From Steroidobacteraceae bacterium (GTDB taxonomy: Bacteria; Pseudomonadota; Gammaproteobacteria; Steroidobacterales; Steroidobacteraceae): 64,000 nucleotides of DNA. The DNA is taken from assembly GCA_036263775.1 (NCBI GenBank), contig DATATA010000074.1, positions 6,782 to 70,781 of the forward strand, given 5' to 3'. Positions 1,253-58,489 of the stretch are shown here, in pieces (within the stretch, counting starts at the first letter, position 1; the number at the start of each line of letters is the position of its first letter). A model generated the notes under the pieces. The model ran no database searches. It was not told the origin of the DNA and saw only the letters and a program-made list of their open reading frames with translations. The translations under genes were made by a program, and so were the position numbers.

Positions 1253-1309
1253 GAGCGTCAGGCGATCTGAGCGTCAGGCGATCTGGGCGTCAGGCGACCT
1301 GGGCGTCAG
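1253..1309. repeat. 16-bp tandem repeat, about 3.5 copies (GAGCGTCAGGCGATCT / GGGCGTCAGGCGACCT)
   Basis: Read directly: units at 1253-1268, 1269-1284 and 1285-1300, plus a partial unit at 1301-1309. It spans the convergent gene junction and the last codons of the minus-strand ATPase gene. Confidence 0.8.
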
Positions 1310-2903
1310 CAGCGGCTTCGAGCGCCGGCAGCGTCACCTTGAAACGGGTCTCCTGACTCAAGACGCTGGCGAGCGCAATTTTGCCGCCGGCCTCGTGCAC
1401 GTAGCGCCGCACCAGCGACATGCCGCTGCCATGTTTCGCATCGCCGCCCGAATCCGGCATGGTTGTGAAGCCCGACTTGAATATCAGTTTGATTGCCTGC
1501 CGGTCCCGCAGCTGGCGCGCGTCGTCCTCGCTCAGCAAACCCTTGGCAACGGCAACCTCGCGCACCTTGTCCGGGTCGATGCCCCGGCCATCGTCCTGAA
1601 ATTGCATTTCGAAGCCGCCGCCCGCCGCCGCATTGAATTCAAGTTCCAGGGTGGCAATTTCGGGCTTACCGGCTTGCTCCCGCTCGACCGCGGTCTCGAT
1701 GCCATGCACCACGGCATTGCGAATCAACTGGATGGCGACATTCTTCACGGTGGCTTGATAGCGGGCCGGAACCAGATCCAGGCCCTGGCACGAAAGCACG
1801 ATGTTCTTTTGACTCTCTTGCGCCACCAGATCGGTCAGCGTTGCGAGGGTGCTTTCGAGGCTGCCGACGGCGGCCATACGCTGCGCCAACGCAGGGGCCG
1901 CGTGCCACGCCAGCTCCGCCAAGAATTTCGGGGCTTCGATGATTTGCGTGCCATTTTCCGTGACGCGCGCCTCCGGCGCCGCAACCTCGGCTTCGCGCGA
2001 AGGTCCCGCTTGCGAAGTGAGCGAACGCAGCAAGGCAAATTGTCCGTATAAGGAATCGAGCTTGACGGCCAAGGGCAGAAAGTCGCCGCCGCTCAAGTTT
2101 TCGCGGCTGCGCAATTCCTGCAGCGCATCTTCGAAGTCGCGCGCGGCGCGCTGCAGTCCGGATAACTTGAGTGCCGCCGCATCGCGGCGTATGCGGTCGA
2201 CTTCCTCGAGAGTCTCCTCGAGCTTGTGACGAAATGCCCCGGCTTCACGTGCCGGCTTTTTCAGCACGCCGTTGATGGTTTTCATCGATTCGTCGGTCCG
2301 CTGCAGGAAGGCCCCGAAGCGCGTGCCTCCGGCCTGCAGCACGCTGCGCAGGATTTCGCCTTGCGTAAGCACGTGGACGCGCAGGTCTTCCAATTCCCGC
2401 AGCTCCTGCACACGCGCGGTAATGTCGGTAACCCGAACCATCCAGGAACGCGGTTCTTGCGGGATCTCGACGCTGCTGAATTCGAAGGAATAATGTGCGG
2501 TGGAGTGGCTGCCGTCCGTATTCGTCAATTTCACCTCCACGTCCTGAAGCGGATTGGCCGCCTCGGCCTCGCCGCGCGCGCTTTCGAGCAGGCGCGTCAT
2601 GTGGGTTCGCACGACGCTCAAGGTCTTCGCGGATACCAACGGACCGATCAATTTCTCGACGGTGAGATTGGCGAATTCCTGGCGGCGAAACAGAGCGCCC
2701 AAGGATGCCGAGACTTGCGGCTGAATCCTGCCTTTCGAGTCCATCAGAAACAGGCCGATGGAGCTGGTCTTCAGAACGGCATCGGTCAGCCTGCTGCTGG
2801 CCTCGAGAAGTTCCTGTTTTTCGCGCTCGTGGCGTTTAACGGAGATGAACATGGCTTTTACAGGGTGCCAAAGCGCAGGCACGCGGGGGATGATGGGTTT
2901 CAC
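1290..2903 (-). CDS. CheA-like histidine-kinase-type ATPase (HATPase_c) with an upstream Hpt-like helical region
   Basis: N box IQLIRNAVVHGIE, G1 DDGRGID, F box IFKSGFTT, G2 GSGMSLVRRYV. It lies directly downstream of the receiver-Ser/Thr kinase gene on the same strand. Confidence 0.7.
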   Translation of the reverse strand: MKPIIPRVPALWHPVKAMFISVKRHEREKQELLEASSRLTDAVLKTSSIGLFLMDSKGRIQPQVSASLGALFRRQEFANLTVEKLIGPLVSAKTLSVVRTHMTRLLESARGEAEAANPLQDVEVKLTNTDGSHSTAHYSFEFSSVEIPQEPRSWMVRVTDITARVQELRELEDLRVHVLTQGEILRSVLQAGGTRFGAFLQRTDESMKTINGVLKKPAREAGAFRHKLEETLEEVDRIRRDAAALKLSGLQRAARDFEDALQELRSRENLSGGDFLPLAVKLDSLYGQFALLRSLTSQAGPSREAEVAAPEARVTENGTQIIEAPKFLAELAWHAAPALAQRMAAVGSLESTLATLTDLVAQESQKNIVLSCQGLDLVPARYQATVKNVAIQLIRNAVVHGIETAVEREQAGKPEIATLELEFNAAAGGGFEMQFQDDGRGIDPDKVREVAVAKGLLSEDDARQLRDRQAIKLIFKSGFTTMPDSGGDAKHGSGMSLVRRYVHEAGGKIALASVLSQETRFKVTLPALEAAADAQVA

Positions 2904-2979: not shown

Positions 2980-4230
2980 TTACGCGACGGCGGCGATGGG
3001 ACCTAGATCCGCGAGCAGCTCATCGGCGGATGCATAGCGGGCGCTCTGCTGTTTGGCCATGAGCCGATCGAGCAGCGGCTGCTGCATGGAGGTAGCTTCG
3101 GGCAACTGGGGCACCGGCGAACTGGTGTGCTGCGACATGATCGCCACGGCGCTGCGGCCCGCGTAGGGTCTCTGGCCCGTGAGCATCTCGTAGAACATGA
3201 CGCCCAAGCTGTACAGGTCGGTGCGCACATCCACGCGCTGACCCTGTGCCTGCTCGGGGCTGATGTAGTAAGGAGACCCGAGCACCTGGCCGACGCCGGT
3301 GTTGCCGATTTCATCGAGCGAACGGCGCGCCAGCCCGAAATCGATCAGCACGGGCGAATTGTCCTCGCGCAGCATGACGTTCGCGGGCTTGAGGTCGCGG
3401 TGCAAGATCCCAAAGACGTGAATGACCCTCAGCGCTTCGGCGATGGCGCGCAGATAATAGAGGCTCTCATCCACGCTCAACGGATTGCGCAAACGATCGC
3501 GCAGGTCGCCGCATGGAAAATATTCCATCGCGAGGTATAAGTGCCCGGGCTGGGAACCAAAGTCGTGAATCTCGGCGATGGCGCGATGCGTGATGCTGGA
3601 GATGATCTCGTATTCACGCTGGAACCGCTCGGCATCGCCCAGTTCCCGTTCCGATTCCCCACGGTTCATCACTTTGAGTACCACATTTCTGCGCAAGCGC
3701 TCGCTGCGTGCGAGGAACACGGATGAGAAATTGCTGGTGGCAATTTCCTTGACGATGGAATAGCCGGACACCTCGATAATGGTCGAATTTTCACTCTGCG
3801 CCATCATGGCGGCCGCTTGAGCGGCAATGCGGCGTTTGGAGCAGGCTTCGCCCACCGCGGCAAGCAGCTGATCCTTGGTGATTTGCGCCAACGGCAGATA
3901 ATCCTTGGCGCCGCCCTTCAGCGCCCGGACGGCCGACAACTCATTGCCATTGTCCGCGAGCAAAATGCAATAGAGCGCGGGCTGCATGCGCAGCAGCTGG
4001 CCCAAGGTGGCGAGAACTGCCTCGGCCAATGCCTCATTGGCGAAATCGGCTTGCAAGATGACGGCATCCGGGGTGCGTTCGCTGATCAGCCGGCTCAAGG
4101 GCGCGGATTCGCCGGCCCGCAGGGTTGTCACCTGCGCGCTCGGCCAGTGGCTTGTCACGTGATGAGTGAGCCATTGGATGCGTTTGGTATCGCCCCCCAC
4201 GACCACCAAGATTGGACCCACGTCTGCCAT
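2980..4230 (-). CDS. Ser/Thr protein kinase with an N-terminal receiver (REC)-like domain
   Basis: Hanks kinase motifs: VVLKV (catalytic Lys), HRDLKPANVML, DFGLAR, GSPYYISPEQ. The N-terminal ~130 aa look like a CheY fold (ILVVVGGD..., AVILQADF..., KGGAKDYL). Confidence 0.85.
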   Translation of the reverse strand: MADVGPILVVVGGDTKRIQWLTHHVTSHWPSAQVTTLRAGESAPLSRLISERTPDAVILQADFANEALAEAVLATLGQLLRMQPALYCILLADNGNELSAVRALKGGAKDYLPLAQITKDQLLAAVGEACSKRRIAAQAAAMMAQSENSTIIEVSGYSIVKEIATSNFSSVFLARSERLRRNVVLKVMNRGESERELGDAERFQREYEIISSITHRAIAEIHDFGSQPGHLYLAMEYFPCGDLRDRLRNPLSVDESLYYLRAIAEALRVIHVFGILHRDLKPANVMLREDNSPVLIDFGLARRSLDEIGNTGVGQVLGSPYYISPEQAQGQRVDVRTDLYSLGVMFYEMLTGQRPYAGRSAVAIMSQHTSSPVPQLPEATSMQQPLLDRLMAKQQSARYASADELLADLGPIAAVA

Positions 4231-22456: not shown

Positions 22457-25400
22457 CTACGCGGCCTTGGCCGGCGCGGCAAGCTGACGCAACACATATT
22501 GCAGTATTCCGCCGTGCTGGTAGTAGTCCAGTTCCTTCGGTGTATCGATGCGCAAGCGCGCTTGAAACTCGATGGATATGCCGTCATCGCCTTTTGCGAT
22601 GACTCTGACCACCTTCGCCGCGCCCCGGTTCAGGCCGGCGATCTCGAAAGTCTCCTTGCCCGAAAGCCCTAGGCTCTGCGTGCTCTGACCTTCCTTGTAT
22701 TGCAGCGGCAGCACGCCCATGCCGATCAGATTGGAGCGGTGAATGCGCTCGAAGCTCTCGGCGATGACAGCCTTGACGCCCAACAGCATCGTGCCCTTGG
22801 CCGCCCAATCGCGCGAACTGCCCGTGCCATATTCCTTGCCGGCGAGAATCACCAGCGGCGTTTTCGCCTCTTGGTACTTGACCGAGGCGTCGAAAATCGA
22901 CATTTGCTCGCCGCTGGGAATGTGCAGCGTGACGCCACCCTCGGTGCCGGGTAACAACAGATTGCGCAATCGGATGTTGGCGAACGTGCCGCGCATCATG
23001 ACTTCGTGATTGCCGCGGCGCGCGCCGTAGGAATTGAAATCCGCCGCTTGCACGCCTTGCGCCATGAGGTACTTGGCAGCCGGACTGGATTTCGAAATGT
23101 TGCCGGCGGGGGAAATGTGGTCGGTCGTGACCGAATCACCCAACACTGCGAGCGCGCGTGCTCCTTTGATGTCGCCCATCGGGGCCGGCGTCATGGTCAT
23201 GCCCTCGAAGTAGGGCGGATTTTTCACGTAGGTGGATTTTCCGTCCCACGAGTAGATTTTTCCGGCCGGCGTCTTGATCGCCGCCCAATTCGTGTCGCCC
23301 AAAAACACATTGGCGTAGCCTTTCTTGAACATGGCCGAATCGACCGATGAAGCGACCGCGGCGGCGACATCTTGGGCGCTCGGCCAGATGTCCTTAAGAT
23401 ATACCGGCTTGCCGTCCTTGCCCGTTCCCAAGGGCTCGGTGGTGATATCGATGTCCAGGCTTCCTGCCAGGGCATAGGCGACAACCAGCGGCGGCGAAGC
23501 CAGAAAATTCATCTTGATTTCCGGATGCACGCGGCCTTCGAAATTGCGATTACCGGATAACACCGAACAGGCGACAACATCGCCCACTTTTACAGCCTCG
23601 GAGATTTCGGGCTTGAGGGGTCCTGAGTTTCCGATGCAATTGTGTACGGCCACGTTGCCGGCTAAAAAAGCCTGTACCTGGGGCACGGCAATGTCGAACA
23701 CCCGCCGGCGTCCTGCGCCGCGGCGGTCGATGACGCGCAAGCTCAAGGCCGGGAGAGTGAGGGACTCCTTGTCGACAAAGTAGCGACTCGCACGATCAAG
23801 CGATTGACCCACTCGCAATGCGCCGAACCAGTGGCTTACCCCGAGCTGCTCAAAGAGTTGTGCAGGCGAGGGGAACTCCGGTGTCTCGACCTCGGCGAGT
23901 TCGGCTGCGGCAATCGATCGCGATCGGGCGAAGGTCCGTTGGACCGGGAGGCGGTACATGCGATCGAGTCGGTCGGCCATCCCTAGCCGCTGACGGTTGA
24001 TGGTTGCGAGCATACGCCAATACACGGCAGCCGCACTCGCTCGCAGATTCTTGTCGATACAGTAGCGATAGCCGACCCGCTCAACAAAAGAAAGCCCGTC
24101 GGGCAGCTCTAAACGGATTTCCCGTCGAGCGATCCCGTCCTGCGCGCTCGGATAAGCGGAGGCCGAGCGAGGCGTGGGATATTCGCGGACCGCGGCACCA
24201 GAGACCTCGACCCCGCAACGGGAGAGCAGCTGGATGATCCTGTCCATCTTCTGTCTGGTTGAATCGACGAACTCGGGTTTGGCGCTTTGCGAGTACCTGG
24301 GCGGCTCCAGGCTCGCATGAGCCGCGGTCTTGCCATAGCGGTGCAGGATAGGAGCATGTCCGTCTGCACCGAAGATACCGCCCAGGAATTCGCGCACCAC
24401 CGAGACCGGGCAGGTTGATTTCAACAGGAATTCGGGCAGGAACGCGGGCTGTTCGATGCGCCGGCCGACATGGACACCTCGGAGCGCCAGCACGCTCTGG
24501 GTCAGCTCGAGCGGCAGCACGATGGACCACTTGCGCTGATCGTAAGCGGTGGCTTTCGGCCGCTTGGCCGTGAGCAGCTCGATATCATTGAGAACCGCTT
24601 CGCGGTCAAATTTTTGCCCCACGTTCATCCGCGCCTGCCCGGCGCAACTGATCGACCCGTCGCCAAGTAAATGGCCCAGCAGACGCGCGAACGCGAGGGT
24701 GCAGCGACGTTCGTTGTCGCTCGCCATGGTAAAGGTCCGAGGTCCCGCCTGCAGCTCGTAGCCCGACTCATCGTCACCAGGATCATCGAGCGGAGCCTCC
24801 GGTCCTATCAGAACGCGATCATTGTTTAGAACGAGCTCGTCGGCCCGAACCCAGCGTCCATCCGCGCATAACACACGATGATCGGGCGTGAGCGTGAGAG
24901 CGCGGCCGTCCTCGAGCACGATCGACAGGCAGTCGCGCTCGCCCTGATCCATGCGCTCGGTCTGCATCGCCATCTGCAGCTCGCCTTCAGCGAGGGGCGC
25001 AAGCACTCGCAGCCCTCCGGCCGCGGCCATCGATTCGATGCGGCGGGCGGTGCCATCCGCCAGCGTTACGGGAGTGCCATCGGCGATGCACGTAGTACAG
25101 CCATAGCCCACCGTGTAAAACCCCAGCCGTTCCAAATCGCTCAACAGACCCGCTTTGGCTAGGTAGTCCGTCACCACACGCGACCCTGGAGCCAGCGAAG
25201 TTTTCACCCACGGTTTCGCGCTCAAGCCTTTTTCGAGCGCACTGCGCGCCAGCAGACCCGCGGCCACGAGGACGGCGGGGTTGGAAGTATTGGTGCAACT
25301 CGTGATGGCGGCGATGAGCACCGCGCCATCTTTGACGTCGAAACTGGCGTTGCCGACCGTGGCCGGCGCGCTGCCCGCGGCCTGGGGGTTTTTCTGGGTG

Positions 25401-26602
25401 CGTTCCTCCGCCATTTTCTTCACGCTGCTCCGATAGACGCTCTTCGCCTTTGTCAAGGGCACCCGGTCCTGCGGACGTTTGGGTCCGGCCAGAGACGGTT
25501 CTACCTTCGACAGGTCCAATTCGACCACATCGGTGTAATCCGCGGCCGGCGCGCCGTTGATGCGCCACAGGCCCTGCGCCTTGGCGTAAGCCTCGACAAG
25601 GGAGATCTGCTCGGCCGATCGGCCGGTCAATTCCAGATAGCGGATCGTTTCCTCGTCGATGGGGAAAATTGCACAGGTCGAGCCGAACTCCGGCGACATA
25701 TTGGCAATGGTCGCGCGATCGGCGAGAGGCAATCCTTTGAGCCCATCGCCGAAGAATTCCACGAATTTGTCGACGACGCCTTTTTTGCGCAGCATCTCCG
25801 TCACCATCAGCACCAGGTCGGTCGCCGTGGTGCCGGGCGGCAATGCGCCCGTCAGCTTGAAGCCAATGACTTGCGGTATCAACATGGTGACCGGCTGCCC
25901 CAACATGGCCGCCTCGGCTTCGATTCCGCCGACGCCCCAGCCGAGAACTCCCAAGCTGTTCACCATGGTGGTGTGCGAATCGGTGCCCACCAGCGTATCC
26001 GGGTACGCGGTTTTTTTGCCGCCGGCATCATCGGAGAAGATCACGCGCGCGAGGCGCTCGATGTTGACCTGGTGCACGATGCCGGTATTCGGCGGCACGA
26101 CCTTGAAGTTGCTGAACGCAGTCTGGCCCCAGCGCAGGAACATGTAGCGTTCGCCGTTGCGCTTGAACTCGATTTCGTTGTTGTGCTGCAGTGAACTAGC
26201 GGCACCATACTCATCGACCTGCACCGAGTGATCGATCACCAGTTCGGCCGGAGCCAGCGGGTTGACCTTCTGCGGATCGCCTCCCAGCTTCACGATCGCC
26301 TCGCGCATCGCGGCAAGATCCACGATGCATGGAACACCGGTGAAATCCTGCATGATGACCCGGGCGGGGGTGAACGCGATCTCATGGCTCGGAAGCGCCT
26401 TCGAGTCCCACTTCAGCAGCGCTTCGATGTCGTCCTTCGTCACGTTGACGCCGTCTTCGAATCGCAGCAAATTCTCCAATAGGATCTTGAGCGAGAAGGG
26501 CAGGCGCTCGACGTTGAGCGAATTCAGGGCCGCAAGGCTCAAAATGTCGTACTGCTGCGCGCCGACTTTGAGCGTCGTTCGTGCCTTGAAGCTGTCTGTC
26601 AT
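22457..26602 (-). CDS. acnA: Aconitate hydratase A interrupted in frame by a 484-aa intein (precursor 1381 aa; predicted spliced enzyme 897 aa)
   Basis: The N-extein (aa 1-504) and C-extein (aa 989-1381) are collinear with AcnA: LPFSLKILLENLLR, VGTDSHT, ITSCTNTS, GYGCTT|CIGNSGPL, SGNRNFEGR, GSSRDWAAKG. Total extein length of 897 aa is typical for AcnA. Confidence 0.93.
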   Translation of the reverse strand: MTDSFKARTTLKVGAQQYDILSLAALNSLNVERLPFSLKILLENLLRFEDGVNVTKDDIEALLKWDSKALPSHEIAFTPARVIMQDFTGVPCIVDLAAMREAIVKLGGDPQKVNPLAPAELVIDHSVQVDEYGAASSLQHNNEIEFKRNGERYMFLRWGQTAFSNFKVVPPNTGIVHQVNIERLARVIFSDDAGGKKTAYPDTLVGTDSHTTMVNSLGVLGWGVGGIEAEAAMLGQPVTMLIPQVIGFKLTGALPPGTTATDLVLMVTEMLRKKGVVDKFVEFFGDGLKGLPLADRATIANMSPEFGSTCAIFPIDEETIRYLELTGRSAEQISLVEAYAKAQGLWRINGAPAADYTDVVELDLSKVEPSLAGPKRPQDRVPLTKAKSVYRSSVKKMAEERTQKNPQAAGSAPATVGNASFDVKDGAVLIAAITSCTNTSNPAVLVAAGLLARSALEKGLSAKPWVKTSLAPGSRVVTDYLAKAGLLSDLERLGFYTVGYGCTTCIADGTPVTLADGTARRIESMAAAGGLRVLAPLAEGELQMAMQTERMDQGERDCLSIVLEDGRALTLTPDHRVLCADGRWVRADELVLNNDRVLIGPEAPLDDPGDDESGYELQAGPRTFTMASDNERRCTLAFARLLGHLLGDGSISCAGQARMNVGQKFDREAVLNDIELLTAKRPKATAYDQRKWSIVLPLELTQSVLALRGVHVGRRIEQPAFLPEFLLKSTCPVSVVREFLGGIFGADGHAPILHRYGKTAAHASLEPPRYSQSAKPEFVDSTRQKMDRIIQLLSRCGVEVSGAAVREYPTPRSASAYPSAQDGIARREIRLELPDGLSFVERVGYRYCIDKNLRASAAAVYWRMLATINRQRLGMADRLDRMYRLPVQRTFARSRSIAAAELAEVETPEFPSPAQLFEQLGVSHWFGALRVGQSLDRASRYFVDKESLTLPALSLRVIDRRGAGRRRVFDIAVPQVQAFLAGNVAVHNCIGNSGPLKPEISEAVKVGDVVACSVLSGNRNFEGRVHPEIKMNFLASPPLVVAYALAGSLDIDITTEPLGTGKDGKPVYLKDIWPSAQDVAAAVASSVDSAMFKKGYANVFLGDTNWAAIKTPAGKIYSWDGKSTYVKNPPYFEGMTMTPAPMGDIKGARALAVLGDSVTTDHISPAGNISKSSPAAKYLMAQGVQAADFNSYGARRGNHEVMMRGTFANIRLRNLLLPGTEGGVTLHIPSGEQMSIFDASVKYQEAKTPLVILAGKEYGTGSSRDWAAKGTMLLGVKAVIAESFERIHRSNLIGMGVLPLQYKEGQSTQSLGLSGKETFEIAGLNRGAAKVVRVIAKGDDGISIEFQARLRIDTPKELDYYQHGGILQYVLRQLAAPAKAA
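23639..25090 (-). mobile_element. Intein with embedded LAGLIDADG homing-endonuclease domain, in frame inside acnA
   Basis: Block A CIADGTPVTLADG (Cys1). Block B LTLTPDHRVL (TxxH). LAGLIDADG motif 1 RLLGHLLGDGS (24653..24685) and motif 2 FLGGIFGADGH (24356..24388). Blocks F/G RRVFDIAVPQVQAFLAGNVAVHN, followed by the +1 Cys. Removing exactly 1452 nt restores the conserved GCTTCIGNSG. Confidence 0.9.
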
Positions 26603-27771
26603 GGCCCCTCCACCGAAAAAAGAGAATTATATGGGATTCCTCGCGCCTCCGGCGCGAGCTCGAAATTGAAACGCCGCGCAATGATGCCGCCGCCAAGGCA
26701 ACGCTCGCCGTCGTAGAAAACGGCGTACTGGCCGGGCGTGACCGCACGCGCAGGGTGTTCGAGCGTCACGCGCCAGGACGCGGCGCCGCTCGAGCGCAGC
26801 GAGCAGGATAGATCGTTCTGCCGATAGCGGGTCTTGACCGCACAATCGATCGCATGCGCCGGTGCGTCCGCAGGATCGATCCAGTGCATCTGCTCGACGC
26901 TGAACTCGTCGGACAAAAGCAACGGATGGTATTGGTCCTGGACCACGACGAGCGCATTGCGTTCGATGATCTTGGCCGCCACATACCACGGCGCTGCGGC
27001 GGCTCCGGCCCGGCCGCCGATTTTAAGGCCGGAACGCTGACCCAAGGTGTATAGGGCAAGGCCGCGATGCTCGCCAAGGACTCGCCCCTCGGGGGTCTCG
27101 ATCGGTCCCGGCGTGGTATGAAGATGCCGGCTCAAGAAATCTTGGAACGGCCGCTCGCCGATGAAGCAGATACCGGTGCTGTCCGGCTTGTCGAATACCG
27201 GCAGCCCTGCGGCATGCGCGATTCGACGCACCTCCGCCTTGCGCATGCCTCCCAACGGGAAGAGTGTCTTCGACAACGCGGAGGCTGCAACCCCATGCAG
27301 GAAATAGCTCTGATCTTTGGCGGTATCGGCCGCTTTCAGCAACTCGATATGCGAACCGGCGCGGCGAATCCGTGCATAGTGGCCGGTTGCCATCCAGGCC
27401 GCGCCCAGACGTTGCATGTACGAAAGGCAAATGCCGAACTTGATCTCTCGATTGCACAGCACGTCCGGATTGGGGGTGCGGCCCGCGGCATATTCGCGAA
27501 GGAAGTGACTGAATACCCGGTCGCGATACTCGCCGGCAAAACTCACCCGATGCAGCGGGATCTGCAAGGTCTCGCTGACGCGACGCGCGTCCTGGAAATC
27601 CGACGCCGTGGTGCAGTAGCCGTCGTCATCTTCCCAATTGGACATGAACAACGCTTGCACCGAATACCCGGCGTCGCGCAATAAAAGTGCGGCGACGGCC
27701 GAGTCAACGCCGCCCGACATGCCGACGATGACGTGTTGTTTCGACTGGGGATTCGGCAGGGGCTTCTGCAT
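26599..27771 (-). CDS. mnmA: tRNA 2-thiouridine(34) synthase
   Basis: PP-loop VIVGMSGGVDSAV, SNWEDDD, and GHYAR and DQSYFL motifs. The stop overlaps the acnA start (ATGA). Confidence 0.9.
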   Translation of the reverse strand: MQKPLPNPQSKQHVIVGMSGGVDSAVAALLLRDAGYSVQALFMSNWEDDDGYCTTASDFQDARRVSETLQIPLHRVSFAGEYRDRVFSHFLREYAAGRTPNPDVLCNREIKFGICLSYMQRLGAAWMATGHYARIRRAGSHIELLKAADTAKDQSYFLHGVAASALSKTLFPLGGMRKAEVRRIAHAAGLPVFDKPDSTGICFIGERPFQDFLSRHLHTTPGPIETPEGRVLGEHRGLALYTLGQRSGLKIGGRAGAAAAPWYVAAKIIERNALVVVQDQYHPLLLSDEFSVEQMHWIDPADAPAHAIDCAVKTRYRQNDLSCSLRSSGAASWRVTLEHPARAVTPGQYAVFYDGERCLGGGIIARRFNFELAPEARGIPYNSLFSVEGP

Positions 27772-56027: not shown

Positions 56028-56795
56028 ATGCGCGCGATTATTCTGGCGGCTGGGCGAGGTATTCGTCTGCAACTACCCGAGGACAGCCAGCTACCGAAGT
56101 GTTTGCTGCGCTTCGACGGGATGACGCTGCTCGAGCGGCATTTACGTATGCTAAAGAGCGCCGGCATCACCGATGTGGTCTTGGCGCTGGGCTTTCGGCA
56201 CGAACTCGTGGAGGCCGAACTCGATCGCTTGGCGTGGGCGCCACGCCCGCAAATCGTGCTCAACACGAGTTTCGAGCTCGGCAGCGTGCTGACCGTGCAG
56301 ACGGTGGCTCGAGCCATGACCGGCGGCGGCGAAGTCTTGCTGATGGATGCAGACGTATTGTACGACGAGCGCATCTTAACAGCGTTGGTGTCCGGGAGCC
56401 GTCCGGTAAACCGTCTGCTGATCGACCGCGATTTCGAGGCCGGCGACGAACCCGTCAAACTCTGCGTGCAAGGCGGAGTGCCGATCGAGCTGCGCAAGCA
56501 GTTGGCGGCCGATTTAAAATTCGACACGATCGGCGAGTCGGTCGGGTTTTTTCGCTTCGACCAGCCTGGGGCGAAGCGCCTGGCGGAATTGGTCGCAGGC
56601 TACGTCGATACGGGACGTGCCCACATGCCGCATGAAGAAGCGGTGCGCGATTTCTTGAGAGAGAGAAGCCAGGTGCTGGAAGTCGCCGACGTAACGGGAT
56701 TTCCGTGGATTGAAATTGATTTTCCAAATGATGTTGTGCGCGCGACCCAGGAAGTGTTGCCGCAACTTCAGCCGTTATCCAGAGGTGGCCAATGA
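56028..56795 (+). CDS. LicC-like nucleotidyltransferase (cytidylyltransferase family)
   Basis: N-terminal [12 protein letters not shown]...PKCLL nucleotide-binding motif. About 255 aa. Confidence 0.75.
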
Positions 56796-58489
56796 ATGCA
56801 ACGACTCGCCCCGCCGCGGGGTCCGCTTATCAAAAGAGCGCCAAGGGCAGTGCTCCGACGCGCTCCGCCAAGCTGCGCCAGATGCTGCACAGCGCGGATT
56901 TGGAGTTTCTGATGGAGGCCCACAACGGTCTCTCGGCGCGCATCGTGCGCGAGGCCGGCTTCAAGGGCATTTGGGCGTCGGGGCTGACCATATCTGCGCA
57001 GTTCGGCGTGCGCGACAACAACGAGGCGAGCTGGACCCAGGTCGTTGATATGTTGGAGTTCATGGCGGATGCCGGCGACTTGCCAATATTGCTCGACGGC
57101 GACACCGGGTACGGCAATTTCAACAATATGCGCCGTCTGGTGCGCAAACTCGAGCAGCGCGGGATCGCCGGCGTCTGCATCGAGGACAAGCAATTTCCAA
57201 AAACGAACAGCTTCTTGAACGGCGAGCGGCAGCCGCTGGCCGACATCGAGGAGTTCGTGGGCAAGATCGCTGCCGGAAAGGACACCCAGCAGGACGCCAA
57301 TTTCTCGATTGTGGCCCGGGTCGAGGCGCTGATCGCCGGCTGGGGCATGGACGAGGCTTTGCGCCGCGCGGAAGCCTACCGGCTCGCCGGTGCCGACGCG
57401 ATTCTCATTCATAGCAAGCTATCGAAGCCGGATGAGATCGTAACCTTCGCCAAGGAATGGGCTCGGCGCGCACCGTTGGTCATAGTGCCGACCCGTTACT
57501 ACAGCACGCCAACGGATGTGTTTCGCCAGGCCGGCATCAGCACCGTCATTTGGGCCAATCATCTGGTGCGTGCGGCCGCTTCGGCAATGCAGAGCATCGC
57601 CAAGGAGATATTCGAGAGCCAGACGCTGGTGAATGTCGAGGACCGCATCGTCTCGGTCAATGAGATCTTTCGTCTGCAGGACGCGGAGGAATACTCGGCG
57701 GCGGAGCGGATTTATCTGTCGAACGGCGGCTCGCCGCGGGCAGCAGTGGTATTGGCTGCGAGCCGCGGCAGAGGGCTGGAGGCAATTACCGAGGATCGTC
57801 CCAAGGTGATGCTGCCCATAGCGGGCAAGCCGCTGCTGCGCTGGTTGGTCGATGGCTTTAAAAAAGAAAACATCAACGATATTACCGTGGTGGGCGGGTA
57901 CCGCGCCGATGCGATCGATACGGCCGGAATCAAACTCGTGGTCAACCAGCGCTACGCCGAGACCGGCGAATTGACGTCGCTGGCGTGCGCCGTCGAATCC
58001 CTCGACTCGGACGCGGTCATTGCCTACGGCGATTTGTTGTTTCGCAGCTATGTGCTGCGGGACCTCGTGGAGTCCAAGGCGGATTTTGCCGTCATCGTCG
58101 ATTCGCTCATGACCGGCGACAGCAATCTTACCGTGCGCGACTATGCATACTGCTCCCGTAGCGACGACCGCGGACTGTTCGGCACGCCGGTACTGCTCGA
58201 GCGAGTCACGAGTGCGGCCGACCTTGAACGCACGCCCCACGGCAGATGGGTCGGTATGCTGGGTGTCAGCCGCGCGGGCCTGAGCAAGATCAAAGCGATG
58301 ATCGCGACGCTGCGCGCCGAGCCCCGCTTCGATGAATTGGATCTGCCCGCGCTGCTCAATGCCTTGGTCGCCGCCGGCTCGGCCGTAGAGGTTGTGTACG
58401 TTCATGGCCACTGGCGCGGCGTCAATGATTTGGAAGATTTGAGACAGGCCGTGGACTTTGCCCACGCCCAGGCCCCCTTCGATCGATGA
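56792..58489 (+). CDS. Phosphoenolpyruvate mutase fused to a C-terminal nucleotidyltransferase domain
   Basis: PepM hallmarks ([35 protein letters not shown]). The C-terminal ~230 aa carry [12 protein letters not shown]...[17 protein letters not shown] overlap at the start. Confidence 0.9.

Follow-up and report, generated by a model that had tools for sequence, protein, structure and literature searches.

The 64,000 nucleotide (nt) stretch analysed here, from a soil gammaproteobacterium of the family Steroidobacteraceae (contig DATATA010000074.1; referred to below as the window) carries on its minus strand an acnA gene for aconitase A, an enzyme of the tricarboxylic acid (TCA) cycle, and the gene is interrupted by an in-frame insert of 484 codons. 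This insert is a class 1 intein of canonical make-up, and its endonuclease is of the double-motif LAGLIDADG type. The original prediction, made from the sequence alone, had described an acnA open reading frame (ORF) of 1381 amino acids (aa) with an intein at residues 505-988 (23639-25090), and on retranslation the ORF, the insert, its motifs and the arithmetic were all correct. The parts of the gene are as follows, positions being those of the window.

22457..26602, minus strand: acnA precursor ORF, 1381 aa plus stop, a 4146 nt open frame (NF006757, Pfam Aconitase and Aconitase_C)
25091..26602, minus strand: N-extein, AcnA residues 1-504, ending ...GYGCTT (gapless against IRP1 and the 897 aa intein-free orthologues)
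25295..25297, minus strand: Cys436, corresponding to IRP1 Cys437, first iron-sulphur (Fe-S) ligand (2b3x alignment)
25097..25099, minus strand: Cys-3, precursor Cys502, corresponding to IRP1 Cys503, second Fe-S ligand and possible disulfide partner of Cys1 (2b3x alignment)
23639..25090, minus strand: intein, 484 aa, precursor residues 505-988 (phmmer against PDB, AlphaFold2 (AF2) model, Foldseek)
23636-23638, minus strand: Cys+1, mature Cys505, corresponding to IRP1 Cys506, Fe-S ligand (2b3x alignment)
22457..23638, minus strand: C-extein, 393 aa plus stop, starting at Cys+1 (alignment to IRP1)

Against the NCBIfam AcnA models the precursor scores 1410 bits for NF006757 (cut-off 686) and 1349 bits for TIGR01341 (cut-off 945), with the matches falling in two stretches, one on each side of the insert, and Pfam finds the Aconitase and Aconitase_C domains in the ORF. 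The host protein is assigned to the AcnA/IRP family, as it scores above the curated cut-off and has the three cysteine ligands. The translated insert starts with CIADGTPV and ends with VAVHN, and is followed by CIGNSGPL. Deletion of the 484 codons restores AcnA, as had been claimed: the product has the standard length of 897 aa, its junction reads ...GYGCTTCIGNSGPL..., and the predicted ligated junction peptide is GYGCTTCIGNSGPLK. The spliced sequence is collinear with human cytosolic aconitase/IRP1 (2b3x), giving 1019 bits over 868 residues with no gap at the junction and all three ligand cysteines in place. When the sequence databases were searched with it, the window's own protein (P0121) came first, followed by many AcnA proteins with 92-96% identity and a length of exactly 897 aa; the named intein-free orthologues of this length are from metagenome-assembled genomes (MAGs) of Steroidobacteraceae, and the spliced product is 96% identical to AcnA of that family.

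One intein-free AcnA (P0126, locus L009) lies at the same chromosomal locus as the window acnA. The DNA alignment of the two genes contains one gap, coinciding with the intein, and the intein-free site reads …GGCTACGGATGTACGACC/TGTATCGGTAATTCCGGACCC… (slash at the insertion point). All eight alleles that were compared by codon (8/8) have a gap-free N-extein of 504 codons and C-extein of 393 codons. These identical exteins, together with the single gap of L009, make the intein junctions exact, in agreement with the original prediction. An in-frame insert with exact junctions in AcnA is far beyond what chance would produce.

The insertion point is at the Fe-S site of the enzyme. Residues Cys437, Cys503 and Cys506 of IRP1 are the three [4Fe-4S] cluster ligands, and these established positions, carried over by the 2b3x alignment, identify Cys436, Cys502 and Cys505 as their equivalents in AcnA. 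On this assignment the intein splits the C-x-x-C ligand motif between Thr504 and the third [4Fe-4S] ligand cysteine, so that a cluster ligand stands on either side of it, one at position -3 and the other, which is also the splicing nucleophile, at +1. The -3 position is a cysteine in 17/17 family members covering the N-junction (here and below, conservation is counted only over members whose alignment covers the given position). Compared with intein-free AcnA and IRP1, the precursor has 484 extra residues that would have to come out for the cluster-binding site to form; with the ligand motif split, the site is presumably absent until splicing.

Within the intein, the splicing and endonuclease domains and their motifs are located as follows.

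24776..25090, minus strand: N-terminal Hint subdomain, intein residues 1-105 (phmmer, AF2, Foldseek)
25088-25090, minus strand: block A Cys1, the N-terminal nucleophile
24878-24889, minus strand: block B TPDH, intein residues 68-71 (Thr68, His71)
23882..24775, minus strand: LAGLIDADG homing-endonuclease domain, intein residues ~106-403 (RtcB_rel_intein, Foldseek)
24656-24682, minus strand: LAGLIDADG motif 1, LLGHLLGDG, intein residues 137-145, acidic residue Asp144
24359-24388, minus strand: LAGLIDADG motif 2, FLGGIFGADG, intein residues 235-244, acidic residue Asp243
23876..23881, minus strand: Pro404-Glu405 codons, the point at which 33 aa are absent (family alignment, spacing census)
23639..23773, minus strand: C-terminal Hint subdomain, intein residues 440-484 (phmmer, AF2, residue conservation)
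23693-23695, minus strand: block F Asp466 (conserved residue)
23639-23644, minus strand: block G His483-Asn484 (conserved residues)

The splicing blocks named in the original prediction (Cys1, TPDH, the two LAGLIDADG motifs, the terminal HN and the +1 Cys) are all present, and the residues concerned are strongly conserved among related inteins. Cys1 is a cysteine in 18/18 family members, Thr68 and His71 of block B are invariant in 23/23, Asp466 and Asn484 are each kept in 31/31 and His483 in 26/31, while the Cys+1 nucleophile is kept in 30/30. The acidic residues of the LAGLIDADG motifs are retained in 33/34 (Asp144) and 39/39 (Asp243) family sequences.

By phmmer against PDB, the M. tuberculosis RecA intein matched residues 1-95 (E 1.4e-7) and again the last 25 residues. 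NCBIfam models of intein-containing RtcB, RecA, RFC and radical-SAM proteins match the expected intein parts, and RtcB_rel_intein matches intein residues 132-381. An AF2 model of the intein, built with 39 family sequences, has a predicted local distance difference test (pLDDT) score of 89, above 90 at the Hint ends, and a predicted template modelling (pTM) score of 0.89. The best PDB matches to this model by Foldseek are TliVMA (E 5e-15), then PI-PfuI and PI-SceI, down to E 1e-8. The terminal parts match the Mtu RecA mini-intein at a root-mean-square deviation (rmsd) of 1.8 Å with 34% identity, and Mtu RecA, NpuDnaB and Ssp DnaB mini-inteins are found at rmsd 1.6-2.3 Å. The middle part matches I-DmoI, I-Tsp061I, E-DreI and I-OnuI variants at E 1e-4 to 2e-6. 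The insert is accordingly modelled as a Hint fold, and the middle domain as the LAGLIDADG alpha/beta fold.

The acnA intein resembles the class 1 LAGLIDADG inteins PI-SceI (VMA1), PI-PfuI, TliVMA and PI-MtuI, which are its best sequence and structure matches, in having an endonuclease domain inside a split Hint domain, in its Cys1, TxxH, block F Asp, His-Asn and Cys+1 residues, and in sitting in an active-site motif that is strongly conserved in the host protein. It differs from them in its host, AcnA, and in its site, immediately before the third Fe-S ligand cysteine, and its sequence identity to these inteins is low, 12-14% when the entire fold is compared and 34% for the Hint part of RecA.

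With the intein alone as query, 163 database matches were obtained, and the best 120 of them were inspected. Wherever the junction was recognisable among these 120 of the 163, the site was identical (GCTT/C...HN/CIGNSGPL, slashes at the junctions); most of the 120 carry precomputed aconitase Pfam domains and some carry PF14890. The alleles are deposited in NCBI, JGI and ENA under the names 'aconitase family protein', 'aconitase A', partial aconitase or hypothetical, and the named sources are Steroidobacteraceae, Rhodanobacteraceae, other Gammaproteobacteria, Acidobacteriota, Chloroflexota (Ktedonobacterales, Limnocylindria), Gemmataceae and Eisenbacteria. Two alleles are labelled as archaeal (Thaumarchaeota/Nitrososphaerota), L007 on a 3.1 kb contig and L011 on a 5.8 kb contig. 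As these contigs are very short and the gene call of L011 starts inside the intein, both the archaeal assignment and the intactness of the two genes are doubtful, and a distribution across domains is not treated as established. Inteins of the window type, at 76-81% identity, are present in six GTDB species genomes (uncultured Gammaproteobacteria), five of the six lying in ORFs of 1392-1498 aa. Many of the aconitase-intein entries are fragmentary, reflecting short contigs and MAG genes split by frameshifts. At the MAG loci L004, L008 and L009, many genes are split into 2-3 ORFs, apparently by assembly frameshifts (fumarase, purB and Trp dioxygenase, as well as acnA itself in L004 and L008), and split genes of this kind raise the count of aconitase-intein entries labelled 'partial' in public databases.

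An exhaustive HMMER search with the intein gave 1027 relatives at E <=0.001, of which 343 reach E <=1e-30. The nearest relatives outside aconitase are inteins of RPB2-type RNA polymerase subunits and of ribonucleotide reductase, in metagenomic proteins, at 29-40% identity. The similarity spans ~370-400 aa and takes in both the Hint and endonuclease parts; the hosts and sites are different, and the aconitase clade is set apart, its members being ~46% or more identical to the window intein. Some of the non-aconitase hosts (P0243-P0384, e.g., P0251, P0259, P0267, P0282 and P0258) are 2000-2900 aa long and contain 4-5 intein-like stretches, suggesting that they are multi-intein genes.

The ratio of non-synonymous to synonymous substitution rates (dN/dS) was calculated by the method of Nei and Gojobori. 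Extein dN/dS is 0.044-0.051 between the window and L009, L010 and L001, comparisons that include a pair of intein-bearing alleles. Intein dN/dS is 0.12-0.24 and similar in the Hint and endonuclease parts (0.15-0.24 for the endonuclease domain). The exteins and both intein domains are under purifying selection. Since the exteins are strongly constrained in intein-bearing lineages, the host gene is functional, which requires efficient splicing, and the window intein very probably does splice.

The inteins and their hosts have different histories. Between the window and L001-L006 the intein dS is 0.32-0.65 (82-86% protein identity) while the extein dS is 1.2-1.4; substitution is close to saturated at extein dS values above 1, so the sign of the difference can be trusted but not its magnitude. 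The reverse is seen with L010, which carries an intein of another lineage (L010:7513-9054) in a host with the gene order of the window: here extein dS is 0.57 (95% protein identity) and intein dS is 1.79, the inteins being 63% identical in protein and 65% in DNA. An identity of only 63% means that at least two lineages of aconitase intein exist within one bacterial family. Thus, inteins that are close to one another sit in distant hosts, and those of close hosts are distant. Distribution is also patchy. Just two of the AcnA clusters most similar to the window's (best 120) have an intein, and the alleles with and without it that the original prediction suggested looking for are found in L010 and L009, respectively, both of which have the window's gene order. 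The discordance in dS and the patchy distribution point to horizontal movement of the intein, probably by homing.

Taken together, the most probable reading, to which we give a probability of about 0.88, is that acnA of the window carries a class 1 intein with a LAGLIDADG homing endonuclease, which splices out of the precursor and spreads by homing. The class 1 splicing route is an established mechanism, and the steps expected for the acnA intein follow from it. The 1381 aa precursor would be translated as a single chain. Cys1 would form a thioester with Thr-1 by an N-S acyl shift, aided by Thr68 and His71 of block B, and Cys+1 would attack this thioester (transthioesterification) to give a branched intermediate. 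Cyclisation of Asn484, aided by His483 and by Asp466 of block F, would release the ~53 kDa intein, after which an S-N shift would restore a normal GCTT-CIGNSG peptide. Cluster cysteines 436, 502 and 505 (mature numbering) would come together only after splicing and the Fe-S cluster would then be inserted; with the ligand set complete only at that stage, both Fe-S insertion and aconitase activity should depend on splicing. The endonuclease would cut the conserved intein-free site, and repair from an intein-bearing allele would copy the intein in, which would explain the patchy distribution and the disagreement of intein and host phylogenies. The window copy looks competent to splice, while its homing has possibly been weakened by the loss of 33 aa.

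Several observations weigh against this reading, in addition to the near-saturated dS values given above. The insert falls just below the curated cut-offs of the intein splicing models, scoring 28.9 bits for Pfam PF14890 Intein_splicing (cut-off 35.8) and 24.3 bits for TIGR01445 (cut-off 24.5), and it is the PDB matches, the predicted structure and the comparison within the family, not Pfam, that carry the domain call. No rise in identity towards the junction was seen in the flanks of any pair, and hence no co-conversion tract was found there. By tblastn there is no second aconitase in the window, though one could be encoded elsewhere in the genome. The window-lineage intein has a slightly higher dN/dS (0.17-0.24) than L001-L006 (0.12-0.18). 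Lastly, the window intein lacks, between Pro404 and Glu405, a 33 aa segment that is conserved in the family (consensus VFPHYSLLEGxDRFxRLPxxxxRxFxPLHRxSC). In a model of the full-length relative P0001 this segment has pLDDT 78-93 and is mostly non-helical. Its loss and the slightly raised dN/dS fit some relaxation in the window lineage.

The conserved segment of ~33 aa after the endonuclease is an extra feature of the aconitase family relative to the known class 1 LAGLIDADG inteins, and it is retained by 56 of the ~60 family members that span the region; P0002, P0083 and L005 have other, independent deletions in the same place. The description of the window intein as full-length in the original prediction is thus right with respect to the splicing blocks, all of which are there, but not with respect to this segment. 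An independent JGI contig (P0386) encodes the deleted form too: its 1381 aa protein differs at five positions, four of them in the intein, and is identical at the other 1376, so the loss is not an assembly error. As the deletion lies outside the Hint subdomains, splicing should be unaffected. The loss may mark the start of endonuclease decay, with homing possibly reduced in the window copy, and it is about as likely as not that the window copy can still act as a homing endonuclease.

The window is a metagenome-type contig and many of the related database entries are fragments, both of which would suit an artefact of assembly or binning, in which a chimeric contig joined the intein of some other gene to acnA. 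The same in-frame architecture and junctions are, however, present in six GTDB species genomes, in JGI contigs and in more than 100 independent fragments, and with identical junctions recurring in this way an artefact was rejected; its probability is negligible. It is also very improbable that the insert is dead, that is, that it does not splice and has left acnA as a pseudogene or with an inactive product, its work being done by AcnB or a second AcnA. Such a state would be in keeping with the 33 aa deletion relative to the family, and a second aconitase could be encoded in the genome outside the window, but the deletion spares the Hint subdomains, the frame is open over 4146 nt with all splicing residues intact, and in the AF2 model the two Hint ends are predicted with pLDDT above 90. 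In addition, extein dN/dS is ~0.05 in intein-bearing lineages, and a second sample has the same allele, undisrupted and identical at 1376/1381 residues. The pseudogene was rejected on the open frame, the intact splicing residues, the constrained exteins and the repeat of the allele in this second sample.

More weight, although it too is unlikely, can be given to a conditional, sensor-like intein, whose splicing would be gated by redox state or by metal or Fe-S availability and which would be kept for regulation. Gating could proceed through a disulfide between Cys-3 and Cys1, or through a metal-binding thiol cluster of Cys-3, Cys1 and Cys+1, the first step of splicing being blocked under oxidative stress. 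The C-x-x-C geometry of Cys-3 and Cys1 is present, and invariant in the 17 members that cover the N-junction, Cys+1 is a predicted Fe-S ligand, and the DnaE 'redox trap' precursor 3nzm is among the Foldseek matches of the Hint domain. There are also precedents. In the MoaA intein of Pyrococcus abyssi, a disulfide between an N-extein cysteine and Cys1 stops splicing of an oxygen-sensitive enzyme (PMC10663303), and disulfides with catalytic cysteine residues make splicing redox-sensitive (PMC4031507). Set beside the MoaA intein as described, the acnA intein is alike in having an oxygen-sensitive Fe-S enzyme as host and an N-extein cysteine near Cys1; it differs in sitting inside a C-x-x-C ligand motif, with Cys+1 also a ligand. 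On the other hand, Cys-3 and Cys+1 occur in every intein-free AcnA, where they are conserved as aconitase ligands, and so are uninformative about selection for a switch. The rarity of the intein among close relatives (2/120 closest AcnA clusters), its horizontal movement and its likely decay in the window are more in keeping with a selfish element than with a regulator that has been retained. The self-splicing, homing intein remains the preferred reading.

Inteins have long been known in metabolic enzymes, among them phosphoenolpyruvate (PEP) synthase, GlmS, UDP-glucose dehydrogenase, GLT1 and MoaA. NCBIfam has models for intein-containing Rv2578c radical SAM and RtcB proteins and none for an intein-containing AcnA. 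Inteins in metabolic and Fe-S/radical-SAM enzymes therefore have precedent, that of P. abyssi MoaA being an example (PMC10663303). No paper on an aconitase intein was found in the open-access literature searched; the main text of the intein survey of Novikova 2016 has no aconitase, and two literature matches (PMC4686929 and PMC9732441) are unrelated to an aconitase intein. The proposal that host and site are new for this class of element thus stands in so far as they are undescribed in the literature searched and lack an NCBIfam model, but the allele is neither rare nor confined to this genome and has already been deposited under aconitase names. What is added is a host and a site not yet described, in the literature searched, for a familiar type of element, and the sequences themselves are already in the databases.

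A core enzyme of the TCA cycle thereby joins the list of intein hosts, and the gene offers a clean natural case of an intein lodged where the host protein is most conserved, between two cysteines that hold the cluster. Because the splicing nucleophile doubles as a cluster ligand, three residues from another ligand cysteine, the acnA precursor is a natural candidate in which to look for splicing of a metabolic enzyme that responds to redox state or metals. If such control were real, AcnA maturation would await a sufficiently reducing cell or the right metal status, and in many soil bacteria the flux through the TCA cycle would depend on splicing, as possibly would whatever the protein does without its cluster. 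The large family, with its alleles with and without intein, two diverged lineages and independent deletions, is a ready system for following the homing cycle in uncultured soil bacteria. A dedicated model for intein-containing AcnA would correct the present names, which are those of plain or 'partial' aconitases or hypothetical proteins.

The window is ordinary chromosomal DNA of ~61% G+C with housekeeping genes. The G+C content of the intein is 0.63 against 0.59-0.61 for the exteins, and at third codon positions (GC3) it is 0.72 against 0.75-0.79. The gene order is fumC, purB, DUF7931, mnmA, acnA and two M16 peptidase genes; it is the same at L009, and this order around acnA is also found in L008 and L010. 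The gene directly upstream of acnA is

26599..27771, minus strand: mnmA (tRNA 2-thiouridylase), its stop codon overlapping the acnA start codon (ATGA, 26599-26602)

and the ATGA overlap is kept in L009 and L010, suggesting translational coupling of the tRNA-thiolation gene with aconitase. A second intein was not found in the window by tblastn. Other genes of the window include thrA, a GHMP-family kinase gene with an adjoining threonine-synthase-like gene, hrpA and uvrC. A eukaryotic-type Ser/Thr protein kinase gene (2980-4230, minus strand) adjoins a gene for a 537 aa protein (1290-2903, minus strand) whose sole match is HATPase_c. An ORF at 56792-58489 (plus strand) encodes a fusion of PEP mutase and nucleoside triphosphate (NTP)-transferase domains and lies in a run of plus-strand genes (~54.9-62.1 kb) that is possibly a phosphonate biosynthesis cluster.

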